Origin: Pseudomonadota bacterium
Lineage (GTDB): Bacteria; Pseudomonadota; Gammaproteobacteria; Pseudomonadales; Moraxellaceae
Direction of reading: 5' to 3'
NCBI GenBank assembly: GCA_052034295.1
Contig: JBPOIS010000036.1
Coordinates: 4,394 to 28,393, forward strand
Length of the DNA: 24,000 nt
Below, in pieces: positions 1,920 to 20,189 of the stretch (its first letter is position 1; each line of letters begins with the position of its first letter). A program made the translations under genes and the position numbers. Under the pieces are notes generated by a model. That model made no database searches and was not told the origin of the DNA. It saw only the letters and a list, made by a program, of their open reading frames with translations.

Positions 1920-3782
1920 TCACTCGTGCAGCACCTGGTACACCGTGCGCGCCAGGGTCCTGCCGATACCGGACACCGCAGCGATTTCGTTTTCGGAGGC
2001 ACTGAGCAACTGCTGGATCCCGCCAAAATGGGTCAGCAGGTCACGGCGGCGCTTCGGCCCCAGCCCCGGAATCAGCTCCAGCACCGACCCACCCCGGCGC
2101 TTGTCGCGCTTGGCCCGGTGCCGGGTGATGGCAAAGCGGTGCGCCTCATCGCGCACCTGCTGGATCAGGTGCAGCGCCTTGTGGTCCGGTTCCAGCTGCA
2201 GGCTGCGCCCATCGACCCAGTGCAGGGTTTCCAGCCCCGGCCTGCGGCCTTCGCCCTTGGACACGCCGAGCATCAGCGGATTCAGGCCCAGCTCGGCCAT
2301 CACCTCGCGGGCCATGCCCAGCTGGCCCTTGCCGCCATCAATCAGCAACAGGTCGGGCAGTGGCTGCTTGCTGTAGCGACGCTTCAGCGCTTGCCGCATG
2401 GCCGCGTAGTCGTCGCCGCCGGTGATGTCACTGATGCTGTACTGGCGGTAGTCGCGCTTGCGGGCGCCCCCCTGATCGAACACCACACACGAGGCCACCG
2501 TGGCCTCGCCCATGGTGTGGCTGATGTCGAAGCATTCGATCCGGTCAATCACCCAGCCCTGCAGGTCCCCGGCCAGCAAGTCCTGCAACAGCCGGAAACG
2601 CTCGCGCAGCTCCAGCTGGTTGCCCAGCCGGGCCTTCAGGGCGGTGCTGGCGTTGAGCTCGGCCAGCTCCAGCCAGTCGGCACGGGTCTCGCGCACCCGC
2701 GATTTCAGGCTGACTTTCTGGCCAAACTGCTCGGCCAGTGCCGCCTGTAGCGCCGCCTGATCCGGCAGTGCCACGCTGGTGATCAGCTCCTCCGGCAGCT
2801 CTTCGGCCAGCTGGAAATAAAAACTGGCCATGAATTCCGACAGCACCGCGCCGGCATCCTCGCGGACCGCCAGATCCGGAAAAAAATTCTTGCCGCCCAG
2901 CACCCGCCCACCGCGCACGGTCATCACGTGCACGCAGACCACACCCGCCTGCTGGGCAATCGCCAGAATGTCGGCTTCGCCCTTCAGGGTGTACACGGCC
3001 TGCTGTGACTGCACCTCGCGCAACAGGATCAGTTGATCGCGGTACAGGGCAGCCTTTTCAAAATCCAGCCCCTCGGACGCCGCCGCCATCATCCCGATCA
3101 GCTTCTGGTTCAGTTCGGTGCTTTCTCCGCGCAAAAAACGCCGGGTATTGTCCACGTCGCGGGCATAGTCCTCCGGTGACACCAGTCCGACACAGGGCGC
3201 ACGGCAGCGCTTGATCTGGTGCTCCAGACAGGGGCGCTTGCGCTGGGCAAAAAAACTGTTTTCACACTGGCGCACCTGAAACATTTTCTGCATCAGCAGC
3301 AGGGTTTCGCGGGCGGCATTGGCACTGGGGTATGGCCCAAAAAAATGTCCGCCTTCATGGTTGCGCCGGCCGCGACCCACCGCCAGCCGGGGGTAGGGCT
3401 GGTCGGCAGACAGGTAGACATACAGATAGGATTTGTCGTCGCGCAGCAGGATGTTGTAGGGCGGGCGGTGCTGTTTGATCAGGTTTTGCTCCAGCAGCAG
3501 CGCCTCGGTTTCACTGCGCACCACGATGGTCTCGAAGTGGCGGATGCGGGCCACCAGTGCCCGGGTCTTGGGGTGGTCGATGGTTTTGACAAAATAACTG
3601 GACACGCGGTTTTTCAGGTTTTTGGCCTTGCCCACGTACAGCAGCTCACCGTCCACCCCGATCATGCGGTACACGCCCGGCAGGTTGGGCAGCGTGGCGA
3701 GCAGCGCGCGCAGGTGCGCCTGTACCCGGTCGGGGTCGGCCTGGGCAATCAGCAAAACGGGATCAATGGACGGCGTGTTCAT
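1920..3782 (-). CDS. uvrC: excinuclease ABC subunit C (UvrC)
   Basis: 620-aa ORF. N-terminal GIY-YIG motif ([29 protein letters not shown]...PPYN), central UvrC/RNase-H-like region, and C-terminal (HhH)2 ([40 protein letters not shown]). Confidence 0.97.
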
Positions 3783-4560: not shown

Positions 4561-4586
4561 CCGGCCCGCTGGGCCGGTTTTTTTTT
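4561..4586 (+). terminator. Rho-independent terminator
   Basis: CCGGCCC-gct-GGGCCGG (4561-4577) followed by T9 (4578-4586), 20 nt after the stop at 4540. Confidence 0.85.
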
Positions 4587-4660
4587 GCCAAAAATCCACC
4601 GCTCTGCCGTGCCGAAACATTCGGTGACTGTCCCGTCATGGGCGTTTGGATTCACCCCTG

Positions 4661-4688
4661 TTGCCAAAGCAACAACATGCCGTACACT
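4661..4688 (+). promoter_or_regulatory. candidate sigma70 promoter for fadBA
   Basis: TTGCCA (4661-4666), 16-nt spacer, TACACT (4683-4688), about 75 nt upstream of the fadB ATG. Based on the sequence pattern only. Confidence 0.3.
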
Positions 4689-4701
4689 TGTGGCACTTTT
4701 T

Positions 4702-4737
4702 GCCAGCCGGATGGACCTGCGGCTGGTGGCTTTTTTT
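4702..4737 (+). terminator. terminator-like hairpin + T7 in the fadB leader (possible attenuator or 5'-UTR stem)
   Basis: CCAGCCG (4703-4709) pairs with CGGCTGG (4720-4726). Alternatively GCCA/TGGC (4702-4705/4727-4730) extends the stem. TTTTTTT follows at 4731-4737, 24 nt before the fadB ATG. Confidence 0.4.
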
Positions 4738-4761
4738 CCCTCCCAACAGGAGATTTCCGGC

Positions 4762-6927
4762 ATGATCTATCAAGGCAATGCCATCACCGTTTCGATGTTG
4801 TCGGACGGTATCGCAGAACTGCGTTTCGACCTGCAAGGCGAATCGGTCAACAAATTCAATCGCCCCACGGTCGAAGACCTCAAAGCGGCCACAGAAGCCC
4901 TGAAAAACAACAGCGACGTCAAAGGCCTGATCGTGACCTCCGGCAAGCCGGTGTTCATCGTCGGGGCTGACATCACCGAATTCGGCGACAACTTTGCCCA
5001 GGGTGAAGCCGCCATCGCAGAATGGCTCGGCCCGGTCAATGGCATTTTTTCCGCCTTTGAAGACCTGCCCTTCCCCACCGTGGCGGCCATCAACGGCATC
5101 GCTTTGGGTGGCGGCTTTGAAATGTGTCTGGCCTGCGACTACCGGGTGATGTCCACCGCCGCCAAGGTCGGCCTGCCGGAAGTCAAACTGGGCATTTTCC
5201 CCGGTTTCGGCGGCACCGTGCGCCTGCCGCGCGTGATTGGCGTGGACAATGCCATCGAGTGGATTGCCACCGGCGCCGAGCAGCGTCCGGAATCTGCCCT
5301 GAAAGTCGGTGCTGTGGATGCCGTCGTGGCCCCGGTACAGCTGGTCGATGCCGCCATTGCCCTGGTCAAACAGTGCATCGCCGGCAAGATCGACTACAAG
5401 GCCCGCCGCCAGGAAAAGCTCGACCCGGTCAAGCTGAACATGCTGGAACAAATGATGGCGCTGAACAGTGCCAAAGGCATGGTGCTGGCCAAGGCCAACC
5501 CGGCCCAGTATCCGGCCCCCAAACTGGTGCTGGACTCGCTGCAGCAGAGCATCAGCCAGCCGCGTGACGCCGCCCTGAAGGTCGAAAGCGAATACTTCGC
5601 CAAAGCCGCCGTCACCCCGCAGGCCGGTGCGCTGATTGGCCTGTTCATGAACGACCAGGTGGTCAAGAAAATGGCCAAGAAGTGGGAAAAACAATCCCAC
5701 CCGGTCAACCGCGCCGCTGTCCTGGGTGCTGGCATCATGGGGGGCGGCATCGCCTATCAGGCAGCCAGCAAGGGCCTGCCGATCATCATGAAGGACATCA
5801 ACACCAAGGCACTGGATCTGGGCTTTGGCGAAGCGTCCAAGCTGCTGTCCAAGCAAATCGAGCGTGGCAAGTCCACCCCGGCCAAGATGGCTGAAGTGCT
5901 GGGCCGCATCGACCGCACCCTGAGCTACAGCGATTTCAACAACGGCGACAGCGCCGTGGACATCGTCATCGAAGCCGTGGTCGAAAACCCGAAAGTCAAA
6001 CAGGCCGTGCTGTCGGAAGTCGAAGGTCTGGTCAAGGACAACTGCATCCTGGCCTCGAACACCTCGACCATTTCCATCACCCATCTGGCCCAGAGCCTGA
6101 AGCGTCCGGAAAACTTCGTCGGCATGCACTTCTTCAACCCCGTGCACATGATGCCGCTGGTTGAAGTCATCCGCGGTGAAAAATCCTCCGACGAAGCCAT
6201 CGCCACCACCGTGGTGCTGGCACAGAAAATGGGCAAGGTGCCGGTGGTGGTCAATGACTGCCCGGGCTTCCTGGTCAACCGCGTGCTGTTCCCGTACTTT
6301 GGCGCCTTTGACCTGCTGCTCAAGGACGGCGCGGACTTCCAGCAGATCGACAAGGTCATGGAAAAATTCGGCTGGCCGATGGGCCCGGCCTACCTGACCG
6401 ATGTGGTCGGCATCGACACCGGCGTGCATGGTGCGCACGTGATGGCCGAAGGTTTCCCGGACCGCATGAAACCGGACTACAAGGGCGCCATCGAGCTGAT
6501 GTATGACGCCAAGCGTCTGGGCCAGAAAAATGGCCAGGGCTTCTACCGCTACGAACTCGACAAGAAGGGCAAGCCCAAAAAAGTCGTCGATGCCGCAGCC
6601 TATGACGTCTTTGCCAGCAGTGTCACCGGTGAAAAACGCGCCTTTGACGACCAGGAAATCATCGACCGCATGATGCTGGCCTTCTGCAACGAAACCGTGC
6701 GCTGCCTGGAAGACAAGATCGTGGCCACCCCGGCTGAAGCCGACATGGCGATGATCATGGGCGTCGGCTTCCCCCCGTTCCGTGGCGGCCCGTGCCGTTA
6801 CATCGACCAGGTTGGTGTCGCCAGCTTCGTCGCCCTGTGTGACCAATACGCCCACCTGGGCAAAGCCTATGAAGCGCCGCAGATGCTGCGGGACATGGCT
6901 GCGGCCAACAAGAAGTTTTACGGTTAA
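4762..6927 (+). CDS. fadB: fatty-acid oxidation complex alpha subunit (enoyl-CoA hydratase / 3-hydroxyacyl-CoA dehydrogenase / epimerase), FadB
   Basis: Frame of track ORF 4585..6927. Start set at ATG 4762 ([33 protein letters not shown]), preceded by AGGAG at 4748-4752. N-terminal crotonase fold ([33 protein letters not shown]), central NAD Rossmann motif ([14 protein letters not shown]), and a 3-hydroxyacyl-CoA dehydrogenase C-domain. Directly followed by fadA. Confidence 0.97.
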
Positions 6928-8115
<1,188 letters not shown>

Positions 8116-8130
8116 AAAAACACGCCAAAA

Positions 8131-8157
8131 ATCCCCGCCCGGTGCGGGGATTTTTTT
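8131..8157 (+). terminator. Rho-independent terminator of fadBA
   Basis: ATCCCCGC-ccggt-GCGGGGAT (8131-8151) followed by a T-run to 8157. Confidence 0.85.
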
Positions 8158-8304
8158 ATGCACGGGTGCGCACCATCGCGCCGGTGCAGCTACAGGCGCT
8201 TACGCCTGAAACACAGTCACAACGCGCCTTGCACAGCCCTTCGCTGGGCACAGGCCGGTAAACCGTTCAAGGTGAACCTGCCCTGCCCACCCAAGGAGCC
8301 AGCC

Positions 8305-9468
8305 ATGCGCGCCCTCACCTATCACGGTCCCAAAGACGTCCGCATCGACAACGTCGATGACCCCACCCTCCAGCAGGATGACGACATCATCCTGCGCGTC
8401 ACCGCCACCGCCATCTGCGGCTCTGACCTGCACCTGTACCGTGGCAAGATCCCCGCCACCGAGCAGGGCGATATTTTTGGCCATGAATTCATGGGCATCG
8501 TCGAAGAGGCTGGACCGGCCGTGACCGCCGTAAAAAAAGGCGACCGCGTGGTGGTCCCCTTTGTGATTGCCTGCGGCGAGTGCTTTTTTTGCCAGATGGA
8601 CCTGACCGCCGCCTGCGAAACCACCAACACCGGTCGCGGTTCGCTGGTCAATAAAAAGGGCATTCCGCCGGGGGCCGCCCTGTTTGGCTATTCGCACCTG
8701 TACGGGGGCGTGCCGGGTGGCCAGGCCGAGTATGTCCGCGTGCCCAAGGCCAACGCAGGCCCATTTAAAGTGCCCGGCTCGCTGTCCGATGAAAAAGTGC
8801 TGTTCCTGAGCGACATCCTGCCCACCGCCTGGCAGGCCGTGCAGAATGCCCAGGTCAAGAAGGGCAGTTCGGTGGCGATCTTTGGGGCGGGTCCAGTGGG
8901 CCTGCTCAGCGCGGCCTGTGCGCAAATGCTGGGCGCTGCACAGATTTTCATGGTCGATCACAACGGCTACCGGCTCGACTATGCACAAAAGACCTACGGG
9001 GCCATCCCGGTGAACTTTGATCAGGTGGACCCGGCCGAAACCATCATCCAGCAGACCGCCGGTCACCGGGGTGTGGATGCGGTGATTGATGCCATTGGCT
9101 TTGAGGCCAAGGGCAGCCTGATTGAAACCGTGCTGACCAACCTGAAGCTGGAGGGCTCCAGCGGCGCGGCCCTGCGCCAGTGCATGGCGGCGGTGCGCCG
9201 TGGCGGCGTGGTCAGTGTGCCGGGGGTGTATGCCGGGCCAATCCATGGCTTCCTGTTTGGTGATGCCTTCGACAAGGGCCTGACCTTCAAGATGGGCCAG
9301 ACCCATGTGCACCACCTGCTGCCGGAGCTGCTGCAACACATCGAAAATGGCGACCTCTCGCCCGAGGCCATCATCACCCACCGCATGAAGCTTGCCGATG
9401 CAGCCAAGGGCTATGAAATTTTTGAAAAACGCCAGGAAGAATGCCGCAAGGTGGTTCTGACGCCCTGA
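8305..9468 (+). CDS. zinc-dependent alcohol dehydrogenase family protein (formaldehyde/threonine dehydrogenase-like)
   Basis: Frame of track ORF 8158..9468. Start set at ATG 8305 ([14 protein letters not shown]), preceded by AAGGAG. Catalytic Zn motif CGSDLH...GHEFMG, structural Zn cysteines CGECFFCQ, and NAD-binding loop [10 protein letters not shown]. Confidence 0.9.
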
Positions 9469-9485
9469 GCGATTTGAAATCCTTT

Positions 9486-9509
9486 CCCCGCTTCGGCGGG
9501 GATTTTTTT
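9486..9509 (+). terminator. Rho-independent terminator
   Basis: CCCCGC-ttcg-GCGGGG (9486-9501) followed by A + T7 (9502-9509). Confidence 0.85.
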
Positions 9510-9626
9510 GCCTGCCCAGAACCGCACGACACAACCTGTCCAGTCCGGTCGCTACAGTCCAGCAGAGTCTACAGGCCGGCCGTTGTTTTCCGGCTGCCCC
9601 ATGCACACCACAGATCGAGTACAACC

Positions 9627-10574
9627 ATGATGTCTTCAGGTCCTTTGACTGAACGCTTTGAACAACGGGTGATTTTCCGGCTGGCCCGCTGGCTGCCGCT
9701 GCTGCTGGGGGGGCTGGCCACCCTGGCGCTGATCGGTGCCGTGGTGGCCCTGCTGTATGCCGTCACCCCCACCCGAGAGCCCGCCGAGCCCAAGCCGGTC
9801 ACGCCGCCGGAACCGGTCCAGCTCAAACTGTCCGAGGTACAGCAGCACCTCGACACACCGGCCCAGCCCAACCCCACTGATGACGCTGAACCGGGCAGCC
9901 TGCCCAATGAAGACCAGCCCAGCGTGTCGGGACAGTCGCGCAGTGCCGCCCTGCAGGAATTCCTGAAAACTGTGGACGCCCTGCAGGCCCAGCTACAGCG
10001 CCATGGTCTGAGTCTGGTCAACCTCACCGAAACCCGCTGTGACAGCTATTATGACGACGGGAGCTGCGCCCACACCGCTGAGGTGGTGGTGACTGAAGCC
10101 CAGCAGGACCTTTTTCAGGTGCTCTCCCTGTACGATGTGGACTCCGAAAACAAGCCGCAGCGTCAGGATACTGCAGGTGGCCTCTACCTGACTGTGGCCG
10201 ATGATGACAGCCTGCCCACCAAAACCCGGGTCATGAAAGAGCTGATTGACATCCTCGCCCAGGCCAAATCCGCCGCTCAGGCCCAGCGCCTGCTGGACGG
10301 CTGGGTGGCCCTGCGCCGTGAACGTGAACACGCGCAGCGGCAGGCCTTTGTGCAGCAACAGGAAGCGCAGCAGGCCGCCTACGCCGAAGCGCTGCAAAAA
10401 CAGCACGACACCCAGACCAAAAAAGCCGAACTGCGCACCCAGTCGATGATGGCCATCGCCGGGGGGCTGTCCCTGCTGGTGTTCTGTGGGCTGGTGCTGG
10501 CGGTGATGGCCCTGGAGCGCCACAGCCGCGCCATGCAGGCCCTGCTGGCGCAGCGGGCCGGGTCACAGCCCTGA
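9627..10574 (+). CDS. hypothetical membrane protein (N- and C-terminal TM helices flanking an acidic, Gln/Ala-rich helical domain)
   Basis: Frame of track ORF 9441..10574, with start moved to ATG 9627 (MMSSGPLTERF), downstream of the preceding terminator. TM1 is LPLLLGGLATLALIGAVVALLYAV and TM2 is MMAIAGGLSLLVFCGLVLAVMAL. I do not recognise a family. Confidence 0.6.
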   Translation: MMSSGPLTERFEQRVIFRLARWLPLLLGGLATLALIGAVVALLYAVTPTREPAEPKPVTPPEPVQLKLSEVQQHLDTPAQPNPTDDAEPGSLPNEDQPSVSGQSRSAALQEFLKTVDALQAQLQRHGLSLVNLTETRCDSYYDDGSCAHTAEVVVTEAQQDLFQVLSLYDVDSENKPQRQDTAGGLYLTVADDDSLPTKTRVMKELIDILAQAKSAAQAQRLLDGWVALRREREHAQRQAFVQQQEAQQAAYAEALQKQHDTQTKKAELRTQSMMAIAGGLSLLVFCGLVLAVMALERHSRAMQALLAQRAGSQP

Positions 10575-10580
10575 ACCCCT

Positions 10581-10784
10581 TCAGGGGCCGCTGGTGTGCT
10601 GGATGGTGGTCACGTGGTGCTGGCTGAACCCCACCCACCACACACCGCCCACCCACGCCACACTGCCCAGGGTGATCAGCGCCACCCCGTGCACTGTGCA
10701 CCATGCGCGCAGCTCACCCCGGTGCCAGCCCAGACAGGGCGGCATGGCCCCGGGTGCCGTGTGGTTTTGACGGTCAGGGTTCAT
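10581..10784 (-). CDS. small hypothetical membrane protein, translationally coupled to creD
   Basis: 67 aa starting at Met 8 of track ORF 10581..10805 (MNPDRQNHT...). Its ATG (10784-10782) overlaps the creD stop (10783-10781) as ATGA. It has one Trp/Gly-rich hydrophobic helix (VALITLGSVAWVGGVWWVGF) and high third-position GC. Confidence 0.45.
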   Translation of the reverse strand: MNPDRQNHTAPGAMPPCLGWHRGELRAWCTVHGVALITLGSVAWVGGVWWVGFSQHHVTTIQHTSGP

Positions 10785-12211
10785 ACCTCTGTCTCCCCGA
10801 CACAATCCGGAGCGGCACTGGCCAGCATCGGGGCCTCCGGCTGATCCAGCCCATACCAGTCCACCCGGCGGGTGACGAACATCACCACTGCAATCAGCAC
10901 AAACACCAGCACCGAACCCATCATCAGCGTGTAGTCCTCCGAAGACAGCAACAGGTAGGTGGTGCCATACAGCGCCGACAACCCAGCCGCCAGCATCAGG
11001 CCGCGCCGCCAGCCGCCCAGCACCTGCGCCACATACCAGCCGATCAGCCCCACACAGGCCAGACAGCCGCCCAGATAGGCCCCGGCAAAGCCCACCACCT
11101 CACCAAACGACAGCACCAGCCCATAAAACACCGCCAGCGCCGCGCCCACCAGCCCATACTGGATCGGGTGCACGCGCCAGCCATGCAGGATTTCCACCAG
11201 AAAAAAAGTCCCAAAGGTCATCAGCACCAGCAGCATGGCGTATTTCAGGCTGCGGTCGGTCAGGGTGTACACCGACACCGGATTCACCCACGTCACGCTC
11301 AGGCTGCGGAACGTCTGCGCCGACGCTGCTGGCGAGATCAGCCCCTCTGGGTCTGCCAAACGGGCCTGTGAGGGGGGGACAGGCTGCGGCTGATTGAGCA
11401 GGCGGTTGTTTTCGACATTCAGATAGCTGGTGTGCCACTGTGCGCTGAAGTCCCGGGCGGTCAGCGTCTTCTGGCTGGGCAGGCTGTCGCCGTCAAAGTG
11501 CGGATGCGGCCAGTTCGACTGCAGGCGCACCTGACTGCCCTGCCCCAGCGGCACCAGACTCAGCCGCTGGATACCGTTCAGGGCCAGTTGCAGCTGCACC
11601 GGCCATTGGGCAGGCCGGGCACTGGCCAGCAGTCCGCCCAGCGGCAGGGTCACCCACTGGCCCTGTATGTCGTCCGGGGCGCCGTTTTCAGCAAATTCAA
11701 ACACATGGCGCTGATCATTCGCCACCAGCACCGGCAGCTGGTCCAGGCCGCGCAGGTCAGTCACCCCCAGCCACAGTTGCGCCCGGCGCCAGTCGAGGCT
11801 GTGCCCGGCAGCCTGGGCTTTTTGCTCAGCCTGTTGCAGTGGATACTGGGTGTCCAGTTGCCACCGGGCCTGCCAGGCCAGCACGCGGTAGGCATTGCGG
11901 CGGTAGCGCTGCCCATCCACCAGGGCTTTGCCCTGCCACCGGCTCTGCAGCGGCACGATCTGTCGCCATGCCGTCATGGCACAGGACTGGCGCGGGTCCT
12001 GCACACAGGGCTGCTGCCACTGTTCAGGCACACGGATGAATGGGGTGATCAACCGCTGCGGCTGCACCTGACTGCGGCCCACATCCTGCTGCAATTGCTG
12101 CTGGTAGCGCTCACGCTCATGGATCAGCCCGCGCACCATCGCGAACACCACCAGCATCACCCCACACAGCAGCCCGATCACCAAGACCTTGCCCATCAAC
12201 ACGGAACGCAT
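10781..12211 (-). CDS. creD: cell-envelope integrity inner-membrane protein CreD
   Basis: 476-aa ORF with an N-terminal TM, a large periplasmic domain and a C-terminal multi-TM block. LQSNWPHPHFDGDSLPSQ...FSAQWHTSYL closely matches my recollection of E. coli CreD (LTSNWPHPSFLGDFLPAK...FQAHWQSSWF). It lies directly downstream of creBC. GGGGAG SD is present. Confidence 0.92.
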   Translation of the reverse strand: MRSVLMGKVLVIGLLCGVMLVVFAMVRGLIHERERYQQQLQQDVGRSQVQPQRLITPFIRVPEQWQQPCVQDPRQSCAMTAWRQIVPLQSRWQGKALVDGQRYRRNAYRVLAWQARWQLDTQYPLQQAEQKAQAAGHSLDWRRAQLWLGVTDLRGLDQLPVLVANDQRHVFEFAENGAPDDIQGQWVTLPLGGLLASARPAQWPVQLQLALNGIQRLSLVPLGQGSQVRLQSNWPHPHFDGDSLPSQKTLTARDFSAQWHTSYLNVENNRLLNQPQPVPPSQARLADPEGLISPAASAQTFRSLSVTWVNPVSVYTLTDRSLKYAMLLVLMTFGTFFLVEILHGWRVHPIQYGLVGAALAVFYGLVLSFGEVVGFAGAYLGGCLACVGLIGWYVAQVLGGWRRGLMLAAGLSALYGTTYLLLSSEDYTLMMGSVLVFVLIAVVMFVTRRVDWYGLDQPEAPMLASAAPDCVGETEV

Positions 12212-12288
12212 GATTTTTTTCTCCCCTTCTGGTGAGCGCCAGTGTGGCGGGCGGGCAAGGGAAATCCGTGAAGTGATCCGGCACGGCT

Positions 12289-12304
12289 GTGAAATGGCGG
12301 TGAA
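12289..12304 (-). promoter_or_regulatory. CreB-binding cre tag (TTCAC-N6-TTCAC) upstream of creD
   Basis: The plus strand reads GTGAAatggcgGTGAA, so the minus strand reads TTCACcgccatTTCAC, an exact match to the direct-repeat consensus described for E. coli CreB. It sits in the creC-creD gap, 77 nt upstream of the creD ATG. A third TTCAC half-site lies at 12268-12272 (minus strand). Confidence 0.6.
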
Positions 12305-12325
12305 ATCTGTGTGCCAGACCGGCCC

Positions 12326-13771
12326 TCAGGACACAGGCAGCTCCAGCAGCACGCTCACCTGCAGGCCCTGCGCCTGCAGCTGCGCCTGTCCGCCATGACG
12401 CTGCATCACCTCGGCGACCAGCGTCAGGCCGATGCCGCTGCCCTTGCGGCCATCGCGGCGCGGCAGGGAAAAATACCGCTCAAAGGCCCGCGTCAGCACA
12501 TAGTCCGGCAGTGGGGCCGCCACGGCATTGCTGATCCGGACCTGGACCCGCGCCCCCTGCGGTTGCACCGCCACCTGCACCACACTGCCCGGCGAGGCGA
12601 AATCCAGCGCATTGTCGAGTACATTGCCCAGTGCCTGCCCCAGCCAGAACGGCTCGGCCTGCACCCACAGCGGGTCCGGCCCGGCACACTGCCACTGCAA
12701 CTGGCGCTGTCGGGCCAGCTGTGCGCGGGACTGCCATTGCTGGCGCAACAGCGCCATCAGGTCCACCGGCTGCCGCTCAAAGGGCTGGCGCTGGTTTTCC
12801 AGCCGGGTCAGCAGCAGCATGCGCTCCACCAGCCCATGCAGGCGCTGGCTCTGCTGCAGGACGTTGTTGCTCAGACGCTGCCGATCCTCAAGCGCCAGCG
12901 GCTCAGCCAGCAGCTCGGCACTGGCGGCAATCGCGGTCAGCGGGCTTTTCAGCTCATGGGTCAGGGTCTGCACATAGCGTTCGACGTAGTGGCGGTTTTC
13001 CAGCGTGTCGCGCATCTGGGCGATGCTGGCCGAGAGCTCATTCAGCTCCCGGGCCAGATAAAAATGCGGCGCCTGCCGGGCCGTCCCCAGCAGTGACAGT
13101 GCATAGCGGCGCACCCGTTGCAGGCTGTCCCGCACCCACAGCGCCACCCCGGTCAGCAGCAGCGCCATCAGCAGCAGCGCCCAGCCGATTCGCTGCAGCA
13201 GCGCGGTTCTGGCACTGTCCAGATACTGCTGCACCGACAGGGCCGGTTTGCCGAGGCTGAGCACCCCGATCAGTCGGCCCTGATGTACGATGGGGGCCCC
13301 GACATACATCACCGAACTGCGGTCATCCCCGGGTGTGCTGCGGGTGCTGCGGACCCCGTACCGGCCCCGAAGGGTCAGGTACACGTCATTCCAGCGGGAA
13401 AAATCCGCCCCCACCGACCGTCCGGTGGAGTCATACAGCACCCGCCCCTGGGCATTGGTGATGTACAGCCGGGTACGCACCTGATTTTTTTCAAACTGCC
13501 AGATCCGCGCGTTGAGCGGCTGCCTGAGCACGGTCTGGATGCGGGCGTCAAAATCCGGCTGCCGGACCCGTCCCTGCGCCACATCTTCGGCCACCCAAAC
13601 CGCCAACAGCCGACTGCTGTCCACCAGGGTGTCCTCCACCGACTGGCGCAGCAGGGGTTTGATCTGGCTTTCCAGCCCGATCAGCAACACGGCCCCACCC
13701 AGCGCCAGAATCAGCGCCAGTGCCAGCCAGATGCGAAAAAAAATCGACAGCTGCGGTCTGCCCACCTCCAT
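12326..13771 (-). CDS. creC: two-component sensor histidine kinase CreC
   Basis: Frame of track ORF 12326..13966. Start moved to ATG 13771 (MEVGRPQLSIFFRIWLALALILALGG), 11 nt after the creB stop; the longer ORF would overlap creB. H-box LTHELKSPLTAI, N-box NVLDNALDF, G-box GSGIGLTLV. Two TM helices flank a periplasmic domain, as in CreC. Confidence 0.9.
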   Translation of the reverse strand: MEVGRPQLSIFFRIWLALALILALGGAVLLIGLESQIKPLLRQSVEDTLVDSSRLLAVWVAEDVAQGRVRQPDFDARIQTVLRQPLNARIWQFEKNQVRTRLYITNAQGRVLYDSTGRSVGADFSRWNDVYLTLRGRYGVRSTRSTPGDDRSSVMYVGAPIVHQGRLIGVLSLGKPALSVQQYLDSARTALLQRIGWALLLMALLLTGVALWVRDSLQRVRRYALSLLGTARQAPHFYLARELNELSASIAQMRDTLENRHYVERYVQTLTHELKSPLTAIAASAELLAEPLALEDRQRLSNNVLQQSQRLHGLVERMLLLTRLENQRQPFERQPVDLMALLRQQWQSRAQLARQRQLQWQCAGPDPLWVQAEPFWLGQALGNVLDNALDFASPGSVVQVAVQPQGARVQVRISNAVAAPLPDYVLTRAFERYFSLPRRDGRKGSGIGLTLVAEVMQRHGGQAQLQAQGLQVSVLLELPVS

Positions 13772-13782
13772 GGCCCTGTGCT

Positions 13783-14550
13783 TCAGGCCACGGGAGGCGC
13801 GGGGCGCAGGCTGTAACCCAGCCCCCGGTGGGTCTCGATCGGGTCTTCTCCCGGGGCAATCGCCCGCAGCTTGTGGCGCAGGGTTTTGATGTGACTGTCC
13901 ACCGTACGGTCCAGGCTGTGCTCCGGATGGTCCCAGACCTGCTGCATCAACTGCTCGCGCGACCACACCCGCCCCGGATGGCGCAGCAGCAGCACCAGCA
14001 GGCGCAGCTCATAGCGGGTCAGGTTCAGCAGCCGGGCATGGTAGTGTACCTGCAGGCGCAGCGGATCAAACTGCCACGCACCCCAGGCCAGCGCACGGCC
14101 CAGATCCAGCGGGACCAGGGTCTGGCCTGTGGATAAACCTGTGGATAACTCAGCCGGAGGTGTCGGGGCCAGTTCACCCTCGGGACGGCTGCGCCGCCAG
14201 ATCGCCTTGATGCGGGCGACCAGCTCCCGGGGGCTGAAGGGCTTGCTGCAGTAATCATCGGCCCCCAGCTCCAGCCCGAGCACCCGCTCCAGCTCCTCCG
14301 AGCGGGCCGTCAGGAACAGCACCGGCACCCGGGACTGCTGGCGGATCTGTCGGCACAGGGTGTAGCCATCGCCATCGGGCAGGCCCACATCGAGAATCAC
14401 CGCATCCAGCGACACCGGCTGTTGCAGCAGCCGGGCGGCCTGCTCGACCGTGCTGTGCCAGATCACCTGCCAGCCTTCGCGGCGCAGGGCCATCTGCAGG
14501 GGATCGGCAATGCCGGGATCATCCTCAACCAACAAGATATTTTTGGGCAT
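13783..14550 (-). CDS. creB: two-component response regulator CreB (OmpR/PhoB family)
   Basis: 255 aa. Receiver domain (ILLVEDD, ILDVGLPDGDG, SKPFSPREL) plus winged-helix output (LTRYELRLLVLLLRHPGRVWSREQL...RTVDSHIKTLRHKL...GLGYSL). Adjacent to creC and creD. The inter-domain linker is longer than I would expect for this family. Confidence 0.92.
   Translation of the reverse strand: MPKNILLVEDDPGIADPLQMALRREGWQVIWHSTVEQAARLLQQPVSLDAVILDVGLPDGDGYTLCRQIRQQSRVPVLFLTARSEELERVLGLELGADDYCSKPFSPRELVARIKAIWRRSRPEGELAPTPPAELSTGLSTGQTLVPLDLGRALAWGAWQFDPLRLQVHYHARLLNLTRYELRLLVLLLRHPGRVWSREQLMQQVWDHPEHSLDRTVDSHIKTLRHKLRAIAPGEDPIETHRGLGYSLRPAPPVA
14126..14149. repeat. 12-bp tandem duplication inside the creB linker
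   Basis: CCTGTGGATAAA (14126-14137) and CCTGTGGATAAC (14138-14149) match at 11 of 12 positions. On the minus strand they encode LSTG-LSTG, using TTA Leu codons that are unusual for this GC-rich sequence. Confidence 0.8.
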
Positions 14551-14694
14551 GGTGGCATCCTGTACAAACCAGACTGCCCCCGTTCAGACAGAAGCAGACA
14601 GGCGGCCCAGCCCCCACAGTCTAGCCGCAAAACGGCTGTACGGGACACGGCACCACGCTTCGACGGGGCGTCTGGTGCTCAGGACAGGCGGGGC

Positions 14695-16395
14695 TCAGGG
14701 CCGCAGGGCCGCCGCAGACAATTGTGGCCACAGCGGTGACCAGCTGCCTTCACAGGGCGCATGGGCCACCCCCTGCAGCACTTCGTTGAGGATCTGCAGG
14801 CCAATCAGCCAGAAAGCCAGCTGACGGTCCGGCTGATCAGCGTGCATGGGCAGCATCGACAGGAACAGCATGGCTTCGAGGATTTTCAGGTCCTCGACGC
14901 GATGCCCTCGGGCCAGCAGCGCCTCACAGAACCAGTGGCGCAGCCGGTCCAACTGGTGATTGCGTGGCAGGCGCAGCTCAAAGCTCACCCCATCCTGCTG
15001 CACACTGAACAGGTCATGGATGATGAAATCATACTGGCCATGCACCGAATGCAGCAGTTTGGCCAGGTCATAGCGTGGATCGCCACAGTTCACCGAGCCC
15101 AGAAAATCGCCCCGTGGATCAATCAGCCGCACCATGCCGCTGGCAGGCTCCAGCAGGATGTTGGAAAAACACAGGTCGCCATGCACAAAACCCGGCCTTG
15201 CACGGCTGCACAGCTGCGCCACCCGCGTTTCCAGCTGGGGCATGAGCCGGGGCAGGCCCTCCAGCGCCACCCCGTTGACCCAGATCCGTGGCGCCTGTAA
15301 CAGATTCTGCAGGGCGGGCTGCGCCACGGCCGCCAGACGCTCCTGCAGCTTGCCCAGATAAAAACGGTTCAGGGCAATGGCAAACTCGGCCCCCTGCGGA
15401 TAGGCGGGCGGCACATCCAGCTGGTTCAGTGACCAGTCGGCGAACTGCCCCTGCAGGTCCAGCACATGGCCCAGTGCCCGCTGCCACACCGCGTCCGGCA
15501 AGGCATAAAACACCCAGTGCTGCGACAGCGAGGCAAAGGGAAAGAACTCCAGCTCATAGCCCAGACGCTGGCCATGGTCCCACTCGCCCAGCAGGCGGGG
15601 AAAATACAGGCGCAGCCCATCCGGCAGACGCTGATAAAACTCAATTTCACGGGCGATCTTGTGGCGCTGGCTGGACTGCTTGGACACCCGACCCTGCACT
15701 GGATCAATGCGCACCTCGTTGAAGCTGCGCGATGCAATGCCGGTGCTCAGTGCCGTCGCCTGACAATCCTGACAGGCCAGATCCGGCAGCGCGGGCGCAG
15801 CCTGCCACTGCTGGCGCAGCCAGCTCACCGCCGCACTGAAAGAACCCTGAAGCAGGTCACGCAAGGTACGGCAGGCCGCCGGGTCCAGCCACAGGCCACA
15901 AAACAGCGGCACATCTTCAGCACTGGCCATGCCGGGCTGCTGCCACACCGAAATGGCTTCACTGCGCTGCCGGTTCAGGTCCAGTTGCCGACTGTCGCAG
16001 AGCTGGTCCAGATTCTGCAGCCAGAGCCCGCCGCGACAGTCATACACCGACAGCACCTGTTGCAGCAGCTGCGTCACCTGCTCCAGCGCCAGGGTCTGGG
16101 CACGGTGGCGCAGGGACAGCTGATGACGCTGCAAATCAATCTGGCAGCCGAGCACCCGCGACCACTCGGGCAGCTGGCTGAGCAACAGGTCATCGGGGTT
16201 GGGCAGCAACAGCACCACATGGTGCACCCCCTGGGCCTTCAGGGTCTGAATCTGCCGGTACACCAGCGGCTGGCCGGCCCGCATCGTCCAGGACTGTGAA
16301 AAACTGGCCAAAGCCCGCTGTTCACGTGCACCCAGACGCTGTGGATCAAACAACACCGCCAGCGGCTTCGACAACGAAGGGGGATTCGTGTGCAT
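14695..16395 (-). CDS. nucleotidyltransferase-like / APH-ChoK-family phosphotransferase (kinase) fusion protein
   Basis: 566-aa ORF. The C-terminal half has the aminoglycoside/choline-kinase catalytic motifs FVHGDLCFSNILL...VRLIDPRG and GDPRYDLAKLLHS. The N-terminal ~120 aa resemble sugar-1-phosphate nucleotidyltransferases (LAVLFDPQRLGAR...MRAGQPLVYRQIQTLKAQGVHHVVLL), but the Gly-rich loop is not intact. Confidence 0.75.
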   Translation of the reverse strand: MHTNPPSLSKPLAVLFDPQRLGAREQRALASFSQSWTMRAGQPLVYRQIQTLKAQGVHHVVLLLPNPDDLLLSQLPEWSRVLGCQIDLQRHQLSLRHRAQTLALEQVTQLLQQVLSVYDCRGGLWLQNLDQLCDSRQLDLNRQRSEAISVWQQPGMASAEDVPLFCGLWLDPAACRTLRDLLQGSFSAAVSWLRQQWQAAPALPDLACQDCQATALSTGIASRSFNEVRIDPVQGRVSKQSSQRHKIAREIEFYQRLPDGLRLYFPRLLGEWDHGQRLGYELEFFPFASLSQHWVFYALPDAVWQRALGHVLDLQGQFADWSLNQLDVPPAYPQGAEFAIALNRFYLGKLQERLAAVAQPALQNLLQAPRIWVNGVALEGLPRLMPQLETRVAQLCSRARPGFVHGDLCFSNILLEPASGMVRLIDPRGDFLGSVNCGDPRYDLAKLLHSVHGQYDFIIHDLFSVQQDGVSFELRLPRNHQLDRLRHWFCEALLARGHRVEDLKILEAMLFLSMLPMHADQPDRQLAFWLIGLQILNEVLQGVAHAPCEGSWSPLWPQLSAAALRP

Positions 16396-16800
16396 GATGA
16401 AGGCGCGATCAAGGACGCAATGGTTTTTATTAATACGACCTTAACTCACCATTGACTCAGGTCACCAGTGTGACTGTGTACAAATCTTGCAAATCATGCA
16501 GGGTCCATGCAGCACAGGCCGAGCGGACAGCATCCACCGGCACGCCCCAGTGTCTGGGCCAGCCTTCAGCAGGATTTTTTTCTGGTTTGCTGCACGCACG
16601 GGATGGCCGCCTGACCGACGGCCAGTGCGCTTGCTGCAGTATTTTTTCAAAAAAAACCTCTGGACTGTGGAGGGGCCTCCTTGTGCTTGTGGGTCCCGTC
16701 CACGCGGTCCGGGCGCTGTACAATATTGCCGACAGTCCGGACTGGCTGTTTACAAAAGAGGGTTTTATGCTGGACCCAATTGATTGACCTGACCTTTTTC

Positions 16801-17841
16801 ATGCGACCGTTTCTTGTTTGTGCCGCACTGTTGAGCCCTGTGACCCTGCAGGCTGCCGAGTCCGCCCCCGCAGCTTCCCTTTCCCCGGCCGCCACGGCCC
16901 CAGCGGCCCCGGAGACAGACGCCAACAGTCCTGGTGTGCTGGAACGCACTGCCGACTGGATTGACCGCAACCGTGATGAGGTGCGCCAGCGCCTGCAACA
17001 GCAGGCCCACCGCATGGACCACTGGTTTGGCGACCAGTACAATCCGGAGGCCCGTGCCCACCTGACGGTGTTCATGGACCACAGCTGGAACGAGTATGAT
17101 GGCTTTGACGCGCGGTTGCGGCTGCGTGGCAACGTCAAGCTGCCCAATGCCAAAAACCGCCTGCGGCTGGTGTTTGGCGATGACCTGATTGAAGAAGAAC
17201 AGCGCCTGAATTTGCCCACCACGGGACGTGCCCCCGCCGCCAGCAAACAGACCAGCCTGCCCCGCCCCTCGCAGGTGAATGACCAGGCCCGGCGTGACAA
17301 CGCCTCGGTGGCGCTACGCCTGCTCGGCGACGCGGGCCGGGGCATCGACACCGATCTGGATCTGGGGGTGCGCTCGGGCACGGACATTTACATCCGGGGC
17401 CGTGCCGACAAGGTGTGGTGGCCTGAGCCGGAATACCGTGTGCTGCTGGGTCAGACCCTGCGTTATGGCAGCAAGAGCCGTGAATACGCCCGCACCGATG
17501 TGCAGGTGGACTATTTGCCCGCCGATCAGGTCGGCAGCACCCTGCTGTCCACCTATACCTTTGCCCATGAACAGCGTGACCTGGGGGTCAGCTATGCCCA
17601 CCGGCTGTCGAAGACCCGCCACTACTGGGAAGGACAGGACCTGACCTATGGGGTACTGGCCGGGGGACACATCCGCGACACGGCCCTTCGGCTGGACAGT
17701 TATGGTCCGTTTGTGAGCTGGCGGCAACCGGTCTGGCGCGAGTGGTTTTTTGTACGTGGGGATTTGAACTACTTCAACGACCGGCTGGCCCACCGTGACC
17801 ACCACCTGTCGGCACTGCTGCGGCTGGAAGCGCAATTCTAG
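16801..17841 (+). CDS. predicted outer-membrane beta-barrel protein (hypothetical)
   Basis: Frame of track ORF 16681..17841, with start moved to ATG 16801. Signal peptide MRPFLVCAALLSPVTLQA-AE. The C-terminal two thirds show alternating hydrophobic/polar strands rich in Y, R, D and G. The protein ends in ...LLRLEAQF, and a C-terminal Phe is typical of the OMP beta-signal. Confidence 0.65.
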   Translation: MRPFLVCAALLSPVTLQAAESAPAASLSPAATAPAAPETDANSPGVLERTADWIDRNRDEVRQRLQQQAHRMDHWFGDQYNPEARAHLTVFMDHSWNEYDGFDARLRLRGNVKLPNAKNRLRLVFGDDLIEEEQRLNLPTTGRAPAASKQTSLPRPSQVNDQARRDNASVALRLLGDAGRGIDTDLDLGVRSGTDIYIRGRADKVWWPEPEYRVLLGQTLRYGSKSREYARTDVQVDYLPADQVGSTLLSTYTFAHEQRDLGVSYAHRLSKTRHYWEGQDLTYGVLAGGHIRDTALRLDSYGPFVSWRQPVWREWFFVRGDLNYFNDRLAHRDHHLSALLRLEAQF

Positions 17842-17878
17842 GCCCCGCCCACTGCGGTCCTGACGCACCCTTGGAGCT

Positions 17879-18736
17879 TCAGTCTGCGCTGGTATAGTCC
17901 CGTTCGCGCCACCACAGCGTGGCAATGTACTTGGTGCCCTCGATGACCGGCAGCCCCGCATGCAGGGTGCGCCGGTCCGGTGTGCCTTCCGCCTGGACAT
18001 TGATGAAGCACAGGGCACTGCCCCGGTGAGGCTGGATGGTCAGCCCCAGCTCCGGAAAAGATGTGCCCCCGCCAGCGGCCACGTCAGACAGGTACAGGAC
18101 CACGGTCAGCACCCGCTGTCCCCCTTTGGCCAGATGGCGCGCACTGCCGCCCAGCGCCGGGTCAAAAAAATCAAAGTGCGCCCGGTATTCGCCGCCCGGC
18201 TGATAGCACAGCACCTGCATGCCCTCCAGCCGCTCCACCGGATAATCCAGCCACTGGCCGATGCGCCGCTCGATCTGGTCCGCCAGCACCTGGGTGCGCC
18301 GGGGAAACCCCGTGCCCACGCTGCTACGGCGCTGGTCCAGCACCGCCCCGCCACCCTGGTCCTCGACCACGGTGGAGCTTTGCAGCTGCGGCTGGGCCAG
18401 GGCAATGAGGGCCTCACACTCTGCTCCGGTCAGCACGCCATCCAGCAGCACCACCACCGGCTGGCTCAGCTGCAGGCGAATGCGCGGCTGCAGGCCATCA
18501 CAGGGCTCCAGCTGGTTGCGGCCCAGTCGGCGGATCGGCTCCGCCAGCAGCGCATAGGGCCGGTCCGGCAGCTGGCCGCCATGTGCGGTCAACTGCGCCG
18601 CCGTCTGGTCGATCAGGTCGCCAAAACCGTTCTGGCGCAGGGTGTCCAGCAGCTGGTCGGGATCACAGCCGCGCTGCAGGTTGTCGTGCAGCCAGTGTTG
18701 CCAGACCTCGGGCAGGTGTTGTGAAAATGCACTCAT
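17879..18736 (-). CDS. 2-oxoglutarate/Fe(II)-dependent oxygenase, prolyl 4-hydroxylase family
   Basis: Frame of track ORF 17879..18754. ATG 18736 (MSAFSQ) is preferred over TTG 18754. P4H core with H-x-D (RAHFDFF), distal His (RTLHAGLPV) and 2OG-binding Lys (GTKYIATLWW). An extra ~90-aa N-terminal region (PEVWQHWLHDNLQRGCDPDQLLDTLRQNGF...) precedes it. Confidence 0.85.
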   Translation of the reverse strand: MSAFSQHLPEVWQHWLHDNLQRGCDPDQLLDTLRQNGFGDLIDQTAAQLTAHGGQLPDRPYALLAEPIRRLGRNQLEPCDGLQPRIRLQLSQPVVVLLDGVLTGAECEALIALAQPQLQSSTVVEDQGGGAVLDQRRSSVGTGFPRRTQVLADQIERRIGQWLDYPVERLEGMQVLCYQPGGEYRAHFDFFDPALGGSARHLAKGGQRVLTVVLYLSDVAAGGGTSFPELGLTIQPHRGSALCFINVQAEGTPDRRTLHAGLPVIEGTKYIATLWWRERDYTSAD

Positions 18737-18830
18737 GTTCAGGACAGCGATCAAAAAACTCTGTCTGCTAACTTAGCAGCTTCACCGCAGGCTGCAAAGC
18801 CAGCCGGCCCGATCCTGTCGGCCCTGCTGC

Positions 18831-18848
18831 TGTAAGCCAAAGCGTACA
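18831..18848 (+). promoter_or_regulatory. GacA/UvrY-type upstream activating box (TGTAAG-N6-CTTACA-like)
   Basis: TGTAAGCCAAAGCGTACA matches the palindromic consensus TGTAAGN6CTTACA at 11 of 12 specified positions. It lies about 60-75 nt upstream of the GGA-rich RNA candidate. Confidence 0.5.
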
Positions 18849-18904
18849 CACTGTGTCAGGAATGTAAGCTTTTTTGAGGATCGTGTTTCCGCGATGATGG
18901 TTAC

Positions 18905-19061
18905 ACGGCACAGGGATGCTGGTCAGGATGACCCGAAGGAAGGACCGCCGTAGGATGACAGGTGACGCTGTAACCCAGTGAGACCTGCAAGGAAGACTCA
19001 ACAGGACGTTGCGCATGAGACCCGCCCCCCTCAGGATGAGATTGGGCGGGTTTTCTCTTTC
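18905..19061 (+). ncRNA. candidate Csr/Rsm-family sRNA (CsrA/RsmA sponge); 5' end uncertain, could be as early as about 18877
   Basis: No credible ORF is present. A(N)GGA motifs lie at 18912-16, 18925-28, 18938-44 (double), 18952-55, 18991-93, 19003-06 and 19033-36. GGUC-AGGAU-GACC forms a hairpin at 18921-18933. One more AGGAUGA sits in the loop of the terminal stem, which is followed by UUUUCUCUUUC. A GacA-type box lies upstream. Confidence 0.55.
19020..19061 (+). terminator. Rho-independent terminator (3' end of the sRNA candidate)
   Basis: ACCCGCCC (19020-19027) pairs with GGGCGGGT (19044-19051). An inner CTCA/TGAG helix presents AGGA in the loop, and a T-rich tail TTTTCTCTTTC runs to 19061. 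The plus-strand orientation is the one with the U-tract. Confidence 0.8.
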
Positions 19062-19188
19062 TGGAATACCCCCATCCGGGTGTTTTTGTCCTGCACTGCC
19101 CAATGCCCTCCTGAATGCAGAATGCCTGCCCGGTGCCATGATGCTGTGGTCAGCCACAGCCTGCAGACTGCCCTGCCCGCACCGCACC

Positions 19189-19410
19189 CTAGCGGTTCCA
19201 CCACCATTTGCTGCGGGTGGGCTCTTCGCTGGGATGCTCTGACAGTGGCGTGTCGCTGGGCTGCTCCTGATTCAGATAGCGAATGATTTCCTGCCGCTCT
19301 TCACGATAGGCTTCCGGGCTGATCTGGCCTTGCAGGCGCTGCAGGTCCAGCTGCCGGAGCCGCTCATTGGCCTGCTGGAACTGGACGCTGTGATTCACCG
19401 GACTAGTCAC
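19189..19410 (-). CDS. small SHOCT-like protein (hypothetical), coupled to the PP2C gene
   Basis: 73-aa track ORF. Its GTG start at 19410 overlaps the PP2C stop (TAG 19405-19403) by 8 nt. LRQLDLQRLQGQISPEAYREERQEIIRYL resembles the SHOCT short C-terminal domain pattern (G-x-I-[ST]-x-E-E-[FY]...). It has an acidic/Pro tail ending in KWWWNR and good third-position GC. Confidence 0.5.
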   Translation of the reverse strand: MTSPVNHSVQFQQANERLRQLDLQRLQGQISPEAYREERQEIIRYLNQEQPSDTPLSEHPSEEPTRSKWWWNR

Positions 19411-20122
19411 GAATTTTCACCACGATTGCGGAAATGTTGTCATCAGCCCCGCCCTCCAGCGCCACGGTCAGCATGCAGTCGGCTGCATCGCGCGGGTTGA
19501 GGCCTGCTGCGAGGTCACACAGGTCGAGCTCATCGACTTCATTGTAAAGCCCATCGGAGCACAGAATATAGCTGTCTCCCGGCAGCGGTTCAAACAGCCG
19601 GCAATCCAGCGCCAGTTCTTCATCGGCACCCACGGCACGGGTGATGACATTGCGCGCCGGGTGCAGGTGGGCTTCTTCCTCGGCCAGCGTGCCCTGGTCA
19701 ATCAGGCGCTGGATCAGCGAATGGTCGGTGCTGATGCGCTCCAGCTGGTGGTCGCGCACCCGGTACAGCCGCGAATCCCCGGCCCACAGGCACACCCCGA
19801 TTCGACTGGACAGCACCATCACCACCACGGTACTGCCCACCGTGCCCATCTGTTTTTCGCGGGCATACAGGCGCAGCTGATGATTGACCGCATCAATGGC
19901 CTGATCGATCTCGTCCACCACTTCAGAGACCTGACGCTGGCGCACATTGAGACTGCGTAACCGTGCCGTAATCAGCTGGCTGGCATAATCGCCGGCAGCA
20001 TGGCCCCCCATGCCATCGGCGACGGCCCAGATGCCCTGAATGGGGGAATCCAGCACCGAGTCTTCATTGATCTTGCGCCGCGTGCCAACGTCTGTGATGT
20101 GGGCAGAGGTCCAAATTAGCAT
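19403..20122 (-). CDS. PP2C/PPM-family Ser/Thr protein phosphatase
   Basis: 239 aa. Motifs are TDVGTRRKINEDS, AVADGMGGHAAGDYAS, GSTVVVMV, WAGDSRLY, ILCSDGL and GGADDNISAIVV, which include the metal-binding Asp residues typical of bacterial PP2C (Stp/PrpC-like). GGGGAG SD lies 6 nt upstream. Confidence 0.9.
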   Translation of the reverse strand: MLIWTSAHITDVGTRRKINEDSVLDSPIQGIWAVADGMGGHAAGDYASQLITARLRSLNVRQRQVSEVVDEIDQAIDAVNHQLRLYAREKQMGTVGSTVVVMVLSSRIGVCLWAGDSRLYRVRDHQLERISTDHSLIQRLIDQGTLAEEEAHLHPARNVITRAVGADEELALDCRLFEPLPGDSYILCSDGLYNEVDELDLCDLAAGLNPRDAADCMLTVALEGGADDNISAIVVKIRD

Positions 20123-20189
20123 GTCATCTCCCCACCCGATTCAATCCCACACCCAACATTCCCTGTTTCTTGCAAGTGATGTTATCGTT

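Follow-up and report, generated by a model that had tools for sequence, protein, structure and literature searches.

The window, a stretch of 24,000 nucleotides of bacterial DNA, is predicted to encode a stand-alone small RNA (sRNA) of the Csr/Rsm type on its plus strand, at 18905-19060. This RNA of about 156 nt would serve as a sponge for the protein CsrA/RsmA, and the probability of this reading is put at about 0.85. The element belongs to a known class and represents a Moraxellaceae/Acinetobacter branch of it that has no database model. An original prediction, made from the sequence alone, had proposed such an RNA at this position. Motif density is only modestly unusual, and neither folding energy nor a consensus scan lends support; the case therefore rests on comparative evidence, in which conservation is decisive.

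Boundaries and structure of the RNA

Transcription most likely starts at about 18905, at an ACGGC motif that follows a conserved -10-like hexamer and a gap of 6 nt. The interval from there to 19060 is delimited by conservation across homologues and scores 158 bits with the covariance model R1, which is described below. The original prediction had the RNA begin at 18877 and end near 19061; the end is essentially retained and the start moves to the later position. Within these limits, GGA triplets start at 18914, 18926, 18938, 18942, 18953, 18991, 19004 and 19034. The seven GGA-core motifs listed originally are all present at the coordinates given for them, with eight triplets inside the quoted strings, and only the two extra motifs placed upstream, at 18858-61 and 18877-80, have to be given up. 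These are located in the promoter spacer, between the upstream box and the -10 element, and are unconserved in the nearest homologue; they are therefore not part of the RNA.

The centroid fold contains five helices and leaves all eight GGA unpaired, as had been anticipated. Three of these reside in hairpin loops (AGGAU, AGGAC and AGGAU) and five in single-stranded stretches. The fold opens with a 5' domain (18905-18951), in which helix P1 pairs 18905-18909 with 18947-18951; inside it, the P2 hairpin is flanked by single-stranded CAGGGAUG on the 5' side and GAAGGAAGGA on the 3' side. P2 (18921-18933; GGUC-AGGAU-GACC) is evident in the sequence as well as in the centroid fold, is near-invariant in homologues, and presents its GGA in a pentaloop exactly as first described. 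Unpaired UAGGAUGA follows on the 3' side of P1 and leads into P3 (18959-18987), a variable hairpin, the loop of which is UAACC, without GGA, in the window lineage and bears a GGA in Alkanindiges, in the metagenome-assembled genome (MAG) KLAP32 and in contig L037. On the 3' side of P3 lies unpaired CAAGGAAG and then P4 (18999-19011; CAAC-AGGAC-GUUG), which is supported by both the centroid fold and the alignment and again holds a GGA in a pentaloop.

The RNA ends in an intrinsic, Rho-independent terminator at 19020-19060. This consists of a GC-rich composite hairpin (19020-19051) with a covarying stem, followed by the tail UUUUCUCUUU. The outer stem is formed by ACCCGCCC and GGGCGGGU and carries an inner hairpin, CUC-AGGAU-GAG, so that the terminal hairpin with a motif in its loop and a U-tract behind it is found as originally reported. 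A simple consensus scan called no terminator at the sRNA locus because the composite stem with its inner hairpin is invisible to that scan. Just past the terminator, at 19074-19091, there is an indel-rich polymorphic stretch that overlaps a second weak hairpin and T-run (ACCCCCATCCGGGTGTTTTTG).

Homologues of the RNA

R1 was built from ten sequences, using a hand-assigned structure identical to the centroid fold. Homologues score from 62 to 174 bits, with those of Alkanindiges and KLAP32 at 166-174 bits. Sequences outside the seed are recovered as well: locus L011 scores 71.6 bits, the second copy at locus L013 scores 62.2 and the loci L147 and L148 score 111.2 and 101.2, respectively. In addition, the model recovers the metagenome contigs L037 and L039, and L012 along with L011. 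A scan of the genome collection with a pattern for the 3' half identified four Alkanindiges genomes and three contigs of KLAP32; a further match, in the actinomycete L023, was dismissed as a chance match. A pattern scan of metagenomes matched at least 120 loci. Among the 80 matches tested, three are family members by R1 and the remainder are chance matches.

Sequence and structure homology, as scored by R1, thus extends to Alkanindiges and Acinetobacter loci. In L147 and L148, contigs that carry ExoIII proteins named after Acinetobacter pittii and A. johnsonii, the homologue is positioned downstream of xthA. It is 65-67% identical to the window RNA, with an identical set of eight GGA positions, the -10 element and the terminator. 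The position downstream of xthA is common to the Acinetobacter-type loci, Alkanindiges, one KLAP32 copy and L011. At the Moraxella xthA locus (L149), no homologue was found by R1.

The relative represented by L013 has an oxygenase that is 67% identical to that of the window, conserved synteny and two tandem sRNA copies. Here, the blastn block shared with the window spans exactly 18830-19060, that is, box to terminator, and is 84% identical compared with 74-78% for the flanking genes. Both tandem copies lie in a single gap (L013:3203-3766, on the minus strand of this locus) and possess separate boxes and terminators; the second is strongly diverged, having 11 GGA and an additional hairpin. KLAP32 has three near-identical copies, promoters included, that differ in their flanks (L017:6552-6708, L019:2819-2975 and L021:3760-3916), which suggests recent duplication or gene conversion. 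Following synteny through the oxygenase gene yields the strain variants and L013. In L011, from the next relative, the oxygenase gene is located elsewhere, without an sRNA directly beside it: at L011:4001-6732 it is found about 700 nt from an sRNA copy downstream of the ExoIII gene, an arrangement unlike that of the window. The linkage between oxygenase and sRNA across L011 and the window is loose and unexplained.

Conservation and covariation

Conservation covers the whole element, from box to terminator, as one unit across Moraxellaceae-type genomes including the Acinetobacter-type contigs. At the shortest distance, this is seen in strain variants, which are ten contigs encoding an identical oxygenase. 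None of the 74 columns from box to RNA start varies in these, and only one of the 156 RNA columns does, through a single inserted nucleotide in a linker; in the flanks, 6 of 94 and 21 of 130 columns vary.

Over longer distances, conservation was assessed in an alignment of 16 sequences with GC contents of 42-60%. Each of the eight GGA sites keeps its column and stays unpaired in 14-16 of the 16 homologues, so that both the centroid fold and the 16-homologue consensus structure place them in loops or unpaired regions. The model-guided alignment has a bias in favour of the structure that was modelled; in it, 94.8% of cells pair, and compensatory changes on both sides are seen at 13 of the 31 pairs. 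None of 500 shuffles matches the observed values and slid controls are 28-49% paired, while a plain MAFFT alignment yields 92.6% paired cells with the trend unchanged. Conserved GGA columns with compensatory stem changes in relatives were what the original prediction had called for.

The compensatory changes are distributed over several helices. P3 is wholly different in sequence between lineages and is nevertheless retained as a hairpin, with all five of its modelled pairs changing on both sides. P4 reads GCAC-AGGAC-GUGC in L011, which amounts to two compensatory pairs. In the terminator, the seventh pair of the outer stem is C-G, A-U, G-C or U-G depending on lineage, and the inner stem covaries from C-G to A-U. 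The P1 pairs are invariant in the 16 sequences and hence structure-compatible.

Genomic location and the coding and cis-acting readings

The element is located in an intergenic gap (18737-19188) between Pfam-supported genes. The left border is a 2OG-Fe(II) oxygenase gene (17879-18736, minus) and the right border is a unit composed of a 73-aa open reading frame (ORF) and a PP2C phosphatase gene (19189-20122, minus). GC content is 0.53-0.58 inside the gap and 0.60-0.73 in the flanks, in keeping with the lower GC content first reported.

Two ORFs overlap the RNA, one of 139 aa (18768-19187, minus) and one of 102 aa (18978-19286, plus), and automated gene calling placed an ORF of 163 aa at this position on the strain contig L009. 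That the conserved block is protein-coding is nonetheless scarcely credible. Neither ORF has a Pfam match; in strain variants, both contain a 1-nt insertion, and several indels follow shortly downstream; and indels between homologues are not multiples of three. In addition, conservation stops exactly at the box and the terminator, and the block recurs in genomic settings that are unrelated to one another. The view that the gap holds no convincing ORF is therefore upheld by both the lack of family matches and the strain indels.

As the element sits between two minus-strand units and converges on the 73-aa/PP2C operon, it could instead be a cis element of a neighbour, for example an untranslated region, an antisense RNA or a terminator region belonging to this operon or to the divergent oxygenase gene. 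This too is highly improbable: both neighbours are on the opposite strand, and the element has a promoter and a terminator of its own. Homologues adjoin unrelated genes, such as when they lie downstream of xthA, and the element is therefore autonomous. Taken together, the strain indels, the missing Pfam matches, the limits of the block and the varied contexts effectively exclude the coding and cis readings.

The promoter

An upstream activating sequence (UAS) of the GacA/UvrY type, TGTAAGCCAAAGCGTACA, is found at 18831-18848 on the plus strand, where it was originally placed. It has one mismatch to TGTAAGN6CTTACA and is the sole match to this consensus in the 24 kb when up to two mismatches are allowed; 0.16 such matches are expected. 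There is no polymorphism in the box among the 10 strain variants. In all 12 homologous promoters examined, a TGTARG-N6-CKTACA box is centred 65 nt upstream of the ACGGC start (64 nt in one case). The box is followed by a putative -10 element, GATGAT (18893-18898, plus), 6 nt upstream of the likely RNA start. It aligns with CATTAT, GATTAT, CATCAT or CATGAT at the equivalent position in all homologues. The sequence between box and -10 element diverges between lineages, while the spacing of the box stays fixed.

A simple consensus scan called no sigma-70 promoter at the sRNA locus, a miss that an activator-dependent promoter lacking a -35 element would account for. A second half-site, TGTAAGC, is present in the promoter spacer at 18862-18868.

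Box, -10 element and terminator suggest how the RNA could be made and how it may work. A response regulator of the GacA/UvrY family would bind the box at 18831-18848, whose centre lies some 65 nt before the start, and would drive activator-dependent transcription from GATGAT, a weak -10 element. Termination would take place at 19020-19060, where the GC-rich hairpin is followed by the U-tract. The eight exposed GGA motifs of the product could then act as decoy sites for CsrA/RsmA dimers. As the RNA accumulates, it would titrate CsrA off messenger RNA leaders that contain GGA and so relieve the translational control of their targets.

Weighing the assignment

Several observations weigh against a Gac-controlled CsrA sponge, and these concern the regulators, the box, the motifs, the fold and the databases. 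The regulators have to be considered in light of the host. UvrC of the window is 74-75% identical to that of Aquirhabdus parva, Alkanindiges and a Moraxellaceae MAG, and the database neighbours of the oxygenase are mostly from Betaproteobacteria. Because of the UvrC identities and the Moraxellaceae-type sRNA family, the host is judged to be an uncultured, high-GC, Moraxellaceae-like gammaproteobacterium. Searches with tblastn detected no csrA, and searches with Pfam and NCBIfam no gacA, in the window and the other loci examined. Furthermore, no gacA/uvrY adjoins uvrC in the three genomes compared, namely that of the window, Alkanindiges L024 and the closest relative, L025. In E. coli and Pseudomonas, gacA/uvrY precedes uvrC; in the window, no such gene stands ahead of uvrC (1920-3782, minus).

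With gacA missing from the sequence examined, the RNA could be a CsrA sponge whose box is bound by another regulator or is dispensable, making it Gac-independent like RsmV and RsmW of Pseudomonas. The box itself offers two arguments in this direction. First, one deviation from the palindrome is conserved, with the asymmetric half-site CGTACA in place of CTTACA in 9 of the 12 promoters. Second, two Acinetobacter-type loci keep the right half of the box and have a degenerate left half. Even so, Gac-independence is unlikely. The match to TGTAAGN6CTTACA is close, and it is a perfect palindrome in L011 and in Alkanindiges sp. WGS2144. The spacing is held in all 12 promoters amid diverging surroundings. 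Finally, rsm promoters known to depend on Gac are arranged in this way, and Acinetobacter is known to possess GacSA (PMC7366521).

The second group of observations concerns the motifs. The RNA contains 8 GGA, 7 of which are AGGA, in 156 nt, compared with a plus-strand mean of 1.7. This high concentration of AGGA/ARGGA is the maximum for the plus strand of the window, and the sRNA region is the only place on that strand with at least 7 GGA. Mononucleotide shuffles reach 8 or more GGA in 2.3% of trials (P about 0.02) because the stretch is G/A-rich, and GGA density alone is only modestly significant. On the minus strand, 7-9 GGA per 156 nt occur near 100-350, 3000-3200, 6900-7100 and 10750-10900. 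These stretches overlap called coding regions (MscS-like, uvrC, the fadB/thiolase junction and creD) and are taken as compositional.

A GGA count that exceeds compositional chance only modestly is what would be seen if the motifs were incidental and the sRNA acted by base pairing, for example with Hfq, or otherwise independently of CsrA. This is very improbable in view of the comparative data. All eight GGA are positionally conserved and unpaired across lineages that range from 42 to 60% GC, and the variable P3 hairpin tends to regain a GGA in its loop. Furthermore, the RNA matches all five sequence-level criteria for CsrA-regulating sRNAs set out by Kulkarni et al. 2006 (PMC1488887), which ask for an intergenic position, a high concentration of AGGA/ARGGA, a Rho-independent terminator, repeated GGA in loops or unpaired regions and a conserved GacA/UvrY-type site upstream. 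The only Rfam family that it resembles is from the Csr/Rsm clan. A CsrA sponge under GacA/UvrY-type control thus remains the preferred reading.

The remaining points against it come from the fold and from Rfam. The folding energy is no better than that of shuffles (z = -0.6) and is not significant on either strand; this is common among RNAs in which many motifs are left unpaired, and the energy is uninformative here. P1 and P2 are invariant and hence provide no covariation support, which adds to the alignment bias mentioned above. Lastly, no Rfam family is reached at gathering threshold in the window and five homologous loci. The best and only match of the window is CsrB, at 19.1 bits against a gathering threshold of 71 (E = 0.003). 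CsrB belongs to clan CL00106, whose families CsrB, CsrC, RsmY, PrrB_RsmZ and rsmX were compared. The Acinetobacter-type homologue matches rsmX at 19.1 bits against a threshold of 56. These scores agree with the suggestion, made at the outset, of a lineage-specific variant that standard models miss.

Relation to known Csr/Rsm systems

The RNAs closest to that of the window come from the same bacterial family. The 2006 study that set out the five criteria predicted rsmX, rsmY and rsmZ in Acinetobacter sp. ADP1 and Rsm-type sRNAs in Psychrobacter arcticum (PMC1488887). In reviews of 2020 and 2022, the Acinetobacter sRNAs are listed as predicted only or their entry is blank. More recently, Singh et al. 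2025 reportedly described three CsrA sponges of A. baumannii, CsrB, CsrC and CsrD (relayed by PMC13516227 and PMC13643297), and according to the latter source, A. baumannii CsrB co-immunoprecipitates with CsrA (PMC13643297). Both GacS/GacA and CsrA are established in this species (PMC7366521, PMC12802169). Consequently, the original assignment to the CsrA-titrating family stands, on the strength of the five sequence criteria and conservation, and the novelty is smaller than it implied, given the predictions of 2006 and the sponges reported since.

The window RNA is homologous to the Acinetobacter-type locus downstream of xthA. Multiple copies per genome, as in the Acinetobacter set, are seen in KLAP32 (three) and L013 (two). 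Relative to the Acinetobacter-type loci, the window copy differs in being situated between the 2OG oxygenase gene and the PP2C operon and in its GC content of 58%. Its box is canonical whereas theirs is degenerate, and its P3 loop is without GGA.

Outside the family, a comparison can be drawn with RsmY, RsmZ and RsmX of Pseudomonas (RF00195, RF00166 and RF02144). These are similar in size (about 110-160 nt), have GGA in hairpin loops and linkers together with a terminator hairpin that has a GGA loop, and are preceded by a TGTAAGN6CTTACA UAS some 65-75 nt upstream (see also PMC1488887). Unlike a member of these families, the window RNA has no gathering-level match, and its own family is set apart by the helix order and by the 5' domain that P1 closes. 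With the enterobacterial CsrB and CsrC (RF00018 and RF00084), it shares CAGGAUG-type hairpins and probably the mechanism. In contrast, CsrB is about 360 nt in length with about 18-22 sites, as compared with 156 nt and 8 sites here.

A further and tentative possibility is that these RNAs form a distinct, Moraxellaceae-wide family that databases do not model. Such a family would be characterised by a P1-closed 5' domain with four GGA, a fast-evolving middle hairpin that gains and loses its GGA loop, and a box held rigidly at about -65, where the asymmetric CGTACA may hint at a diverged GacA specificity. Its gene would be mobile and duplicating, so that copy number and location could tune CsrA activity by lineage. 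The basis for gene movement and duplication is fourfold: the tandem copies of L013, the three copies of KLAP32, the xthA-side position elsewhere, and the window copy, which is in a variable segment because that segment has no counterpart in L025.

As the mechanism is textbook, the interest of the finding is practical. None of the Rfam 15 models recognises the Csr/Rsm sRNAs of Moraxellaceae and Acinetobacter, and these consequently go unannotated in genomes and MAGs. The family affected includes the priority pathogen A. baumannii, whose CsrA antagonist RNAs have only recently begun to be described. CsrA is conditionally essential in A. baumannii. The alignment and R1, with 16 sequences, 8 conserved GGA and 13 covarying pairs, could seed a new RNA family, and the fixed geometry of the box is a handle for testing control by GacA. 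A functional Gac-Csr cascade is also predicted for this uncultured lineage of Moraxellaceae.

Neighbouring genes

Beyond the PP2C gene follow lptG, lptF and then the divergent pepA. Two segments of the window, 9468-16987 and 17849-20188, have no counterpart in L025, which is 84-89% identical at the nucleotide level and in which a 338-aa gene abuts lptG directly. One of the segments contains a 377-aa ORF, CreD, a CreC-like kinase, CreB and an APH-like kinase, and the other contains the oxygenase, the sRNA, the 73-aa ORF and PP2C.

The 73-aa ORF (19189-19410, minus) is conserved, with a 68-aa version in L013, and overlaps the end of the PP2C gene. It could not be assigned to a family, a sub-threshold GvpG-like match (E = 0.004) being the only one. 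Elsewhere in the window, an ORF of 1175 aa (4636-8163, minus) is spurious, and the genuine genes are encoded on the opposite strand. Opposite to it are a fadB-like gene (4585-6927) and a thiolase gene (6940-8115), and nearby is a zinc alcohol dehydrogenase gene (8158-9468), all three on the plus strand.

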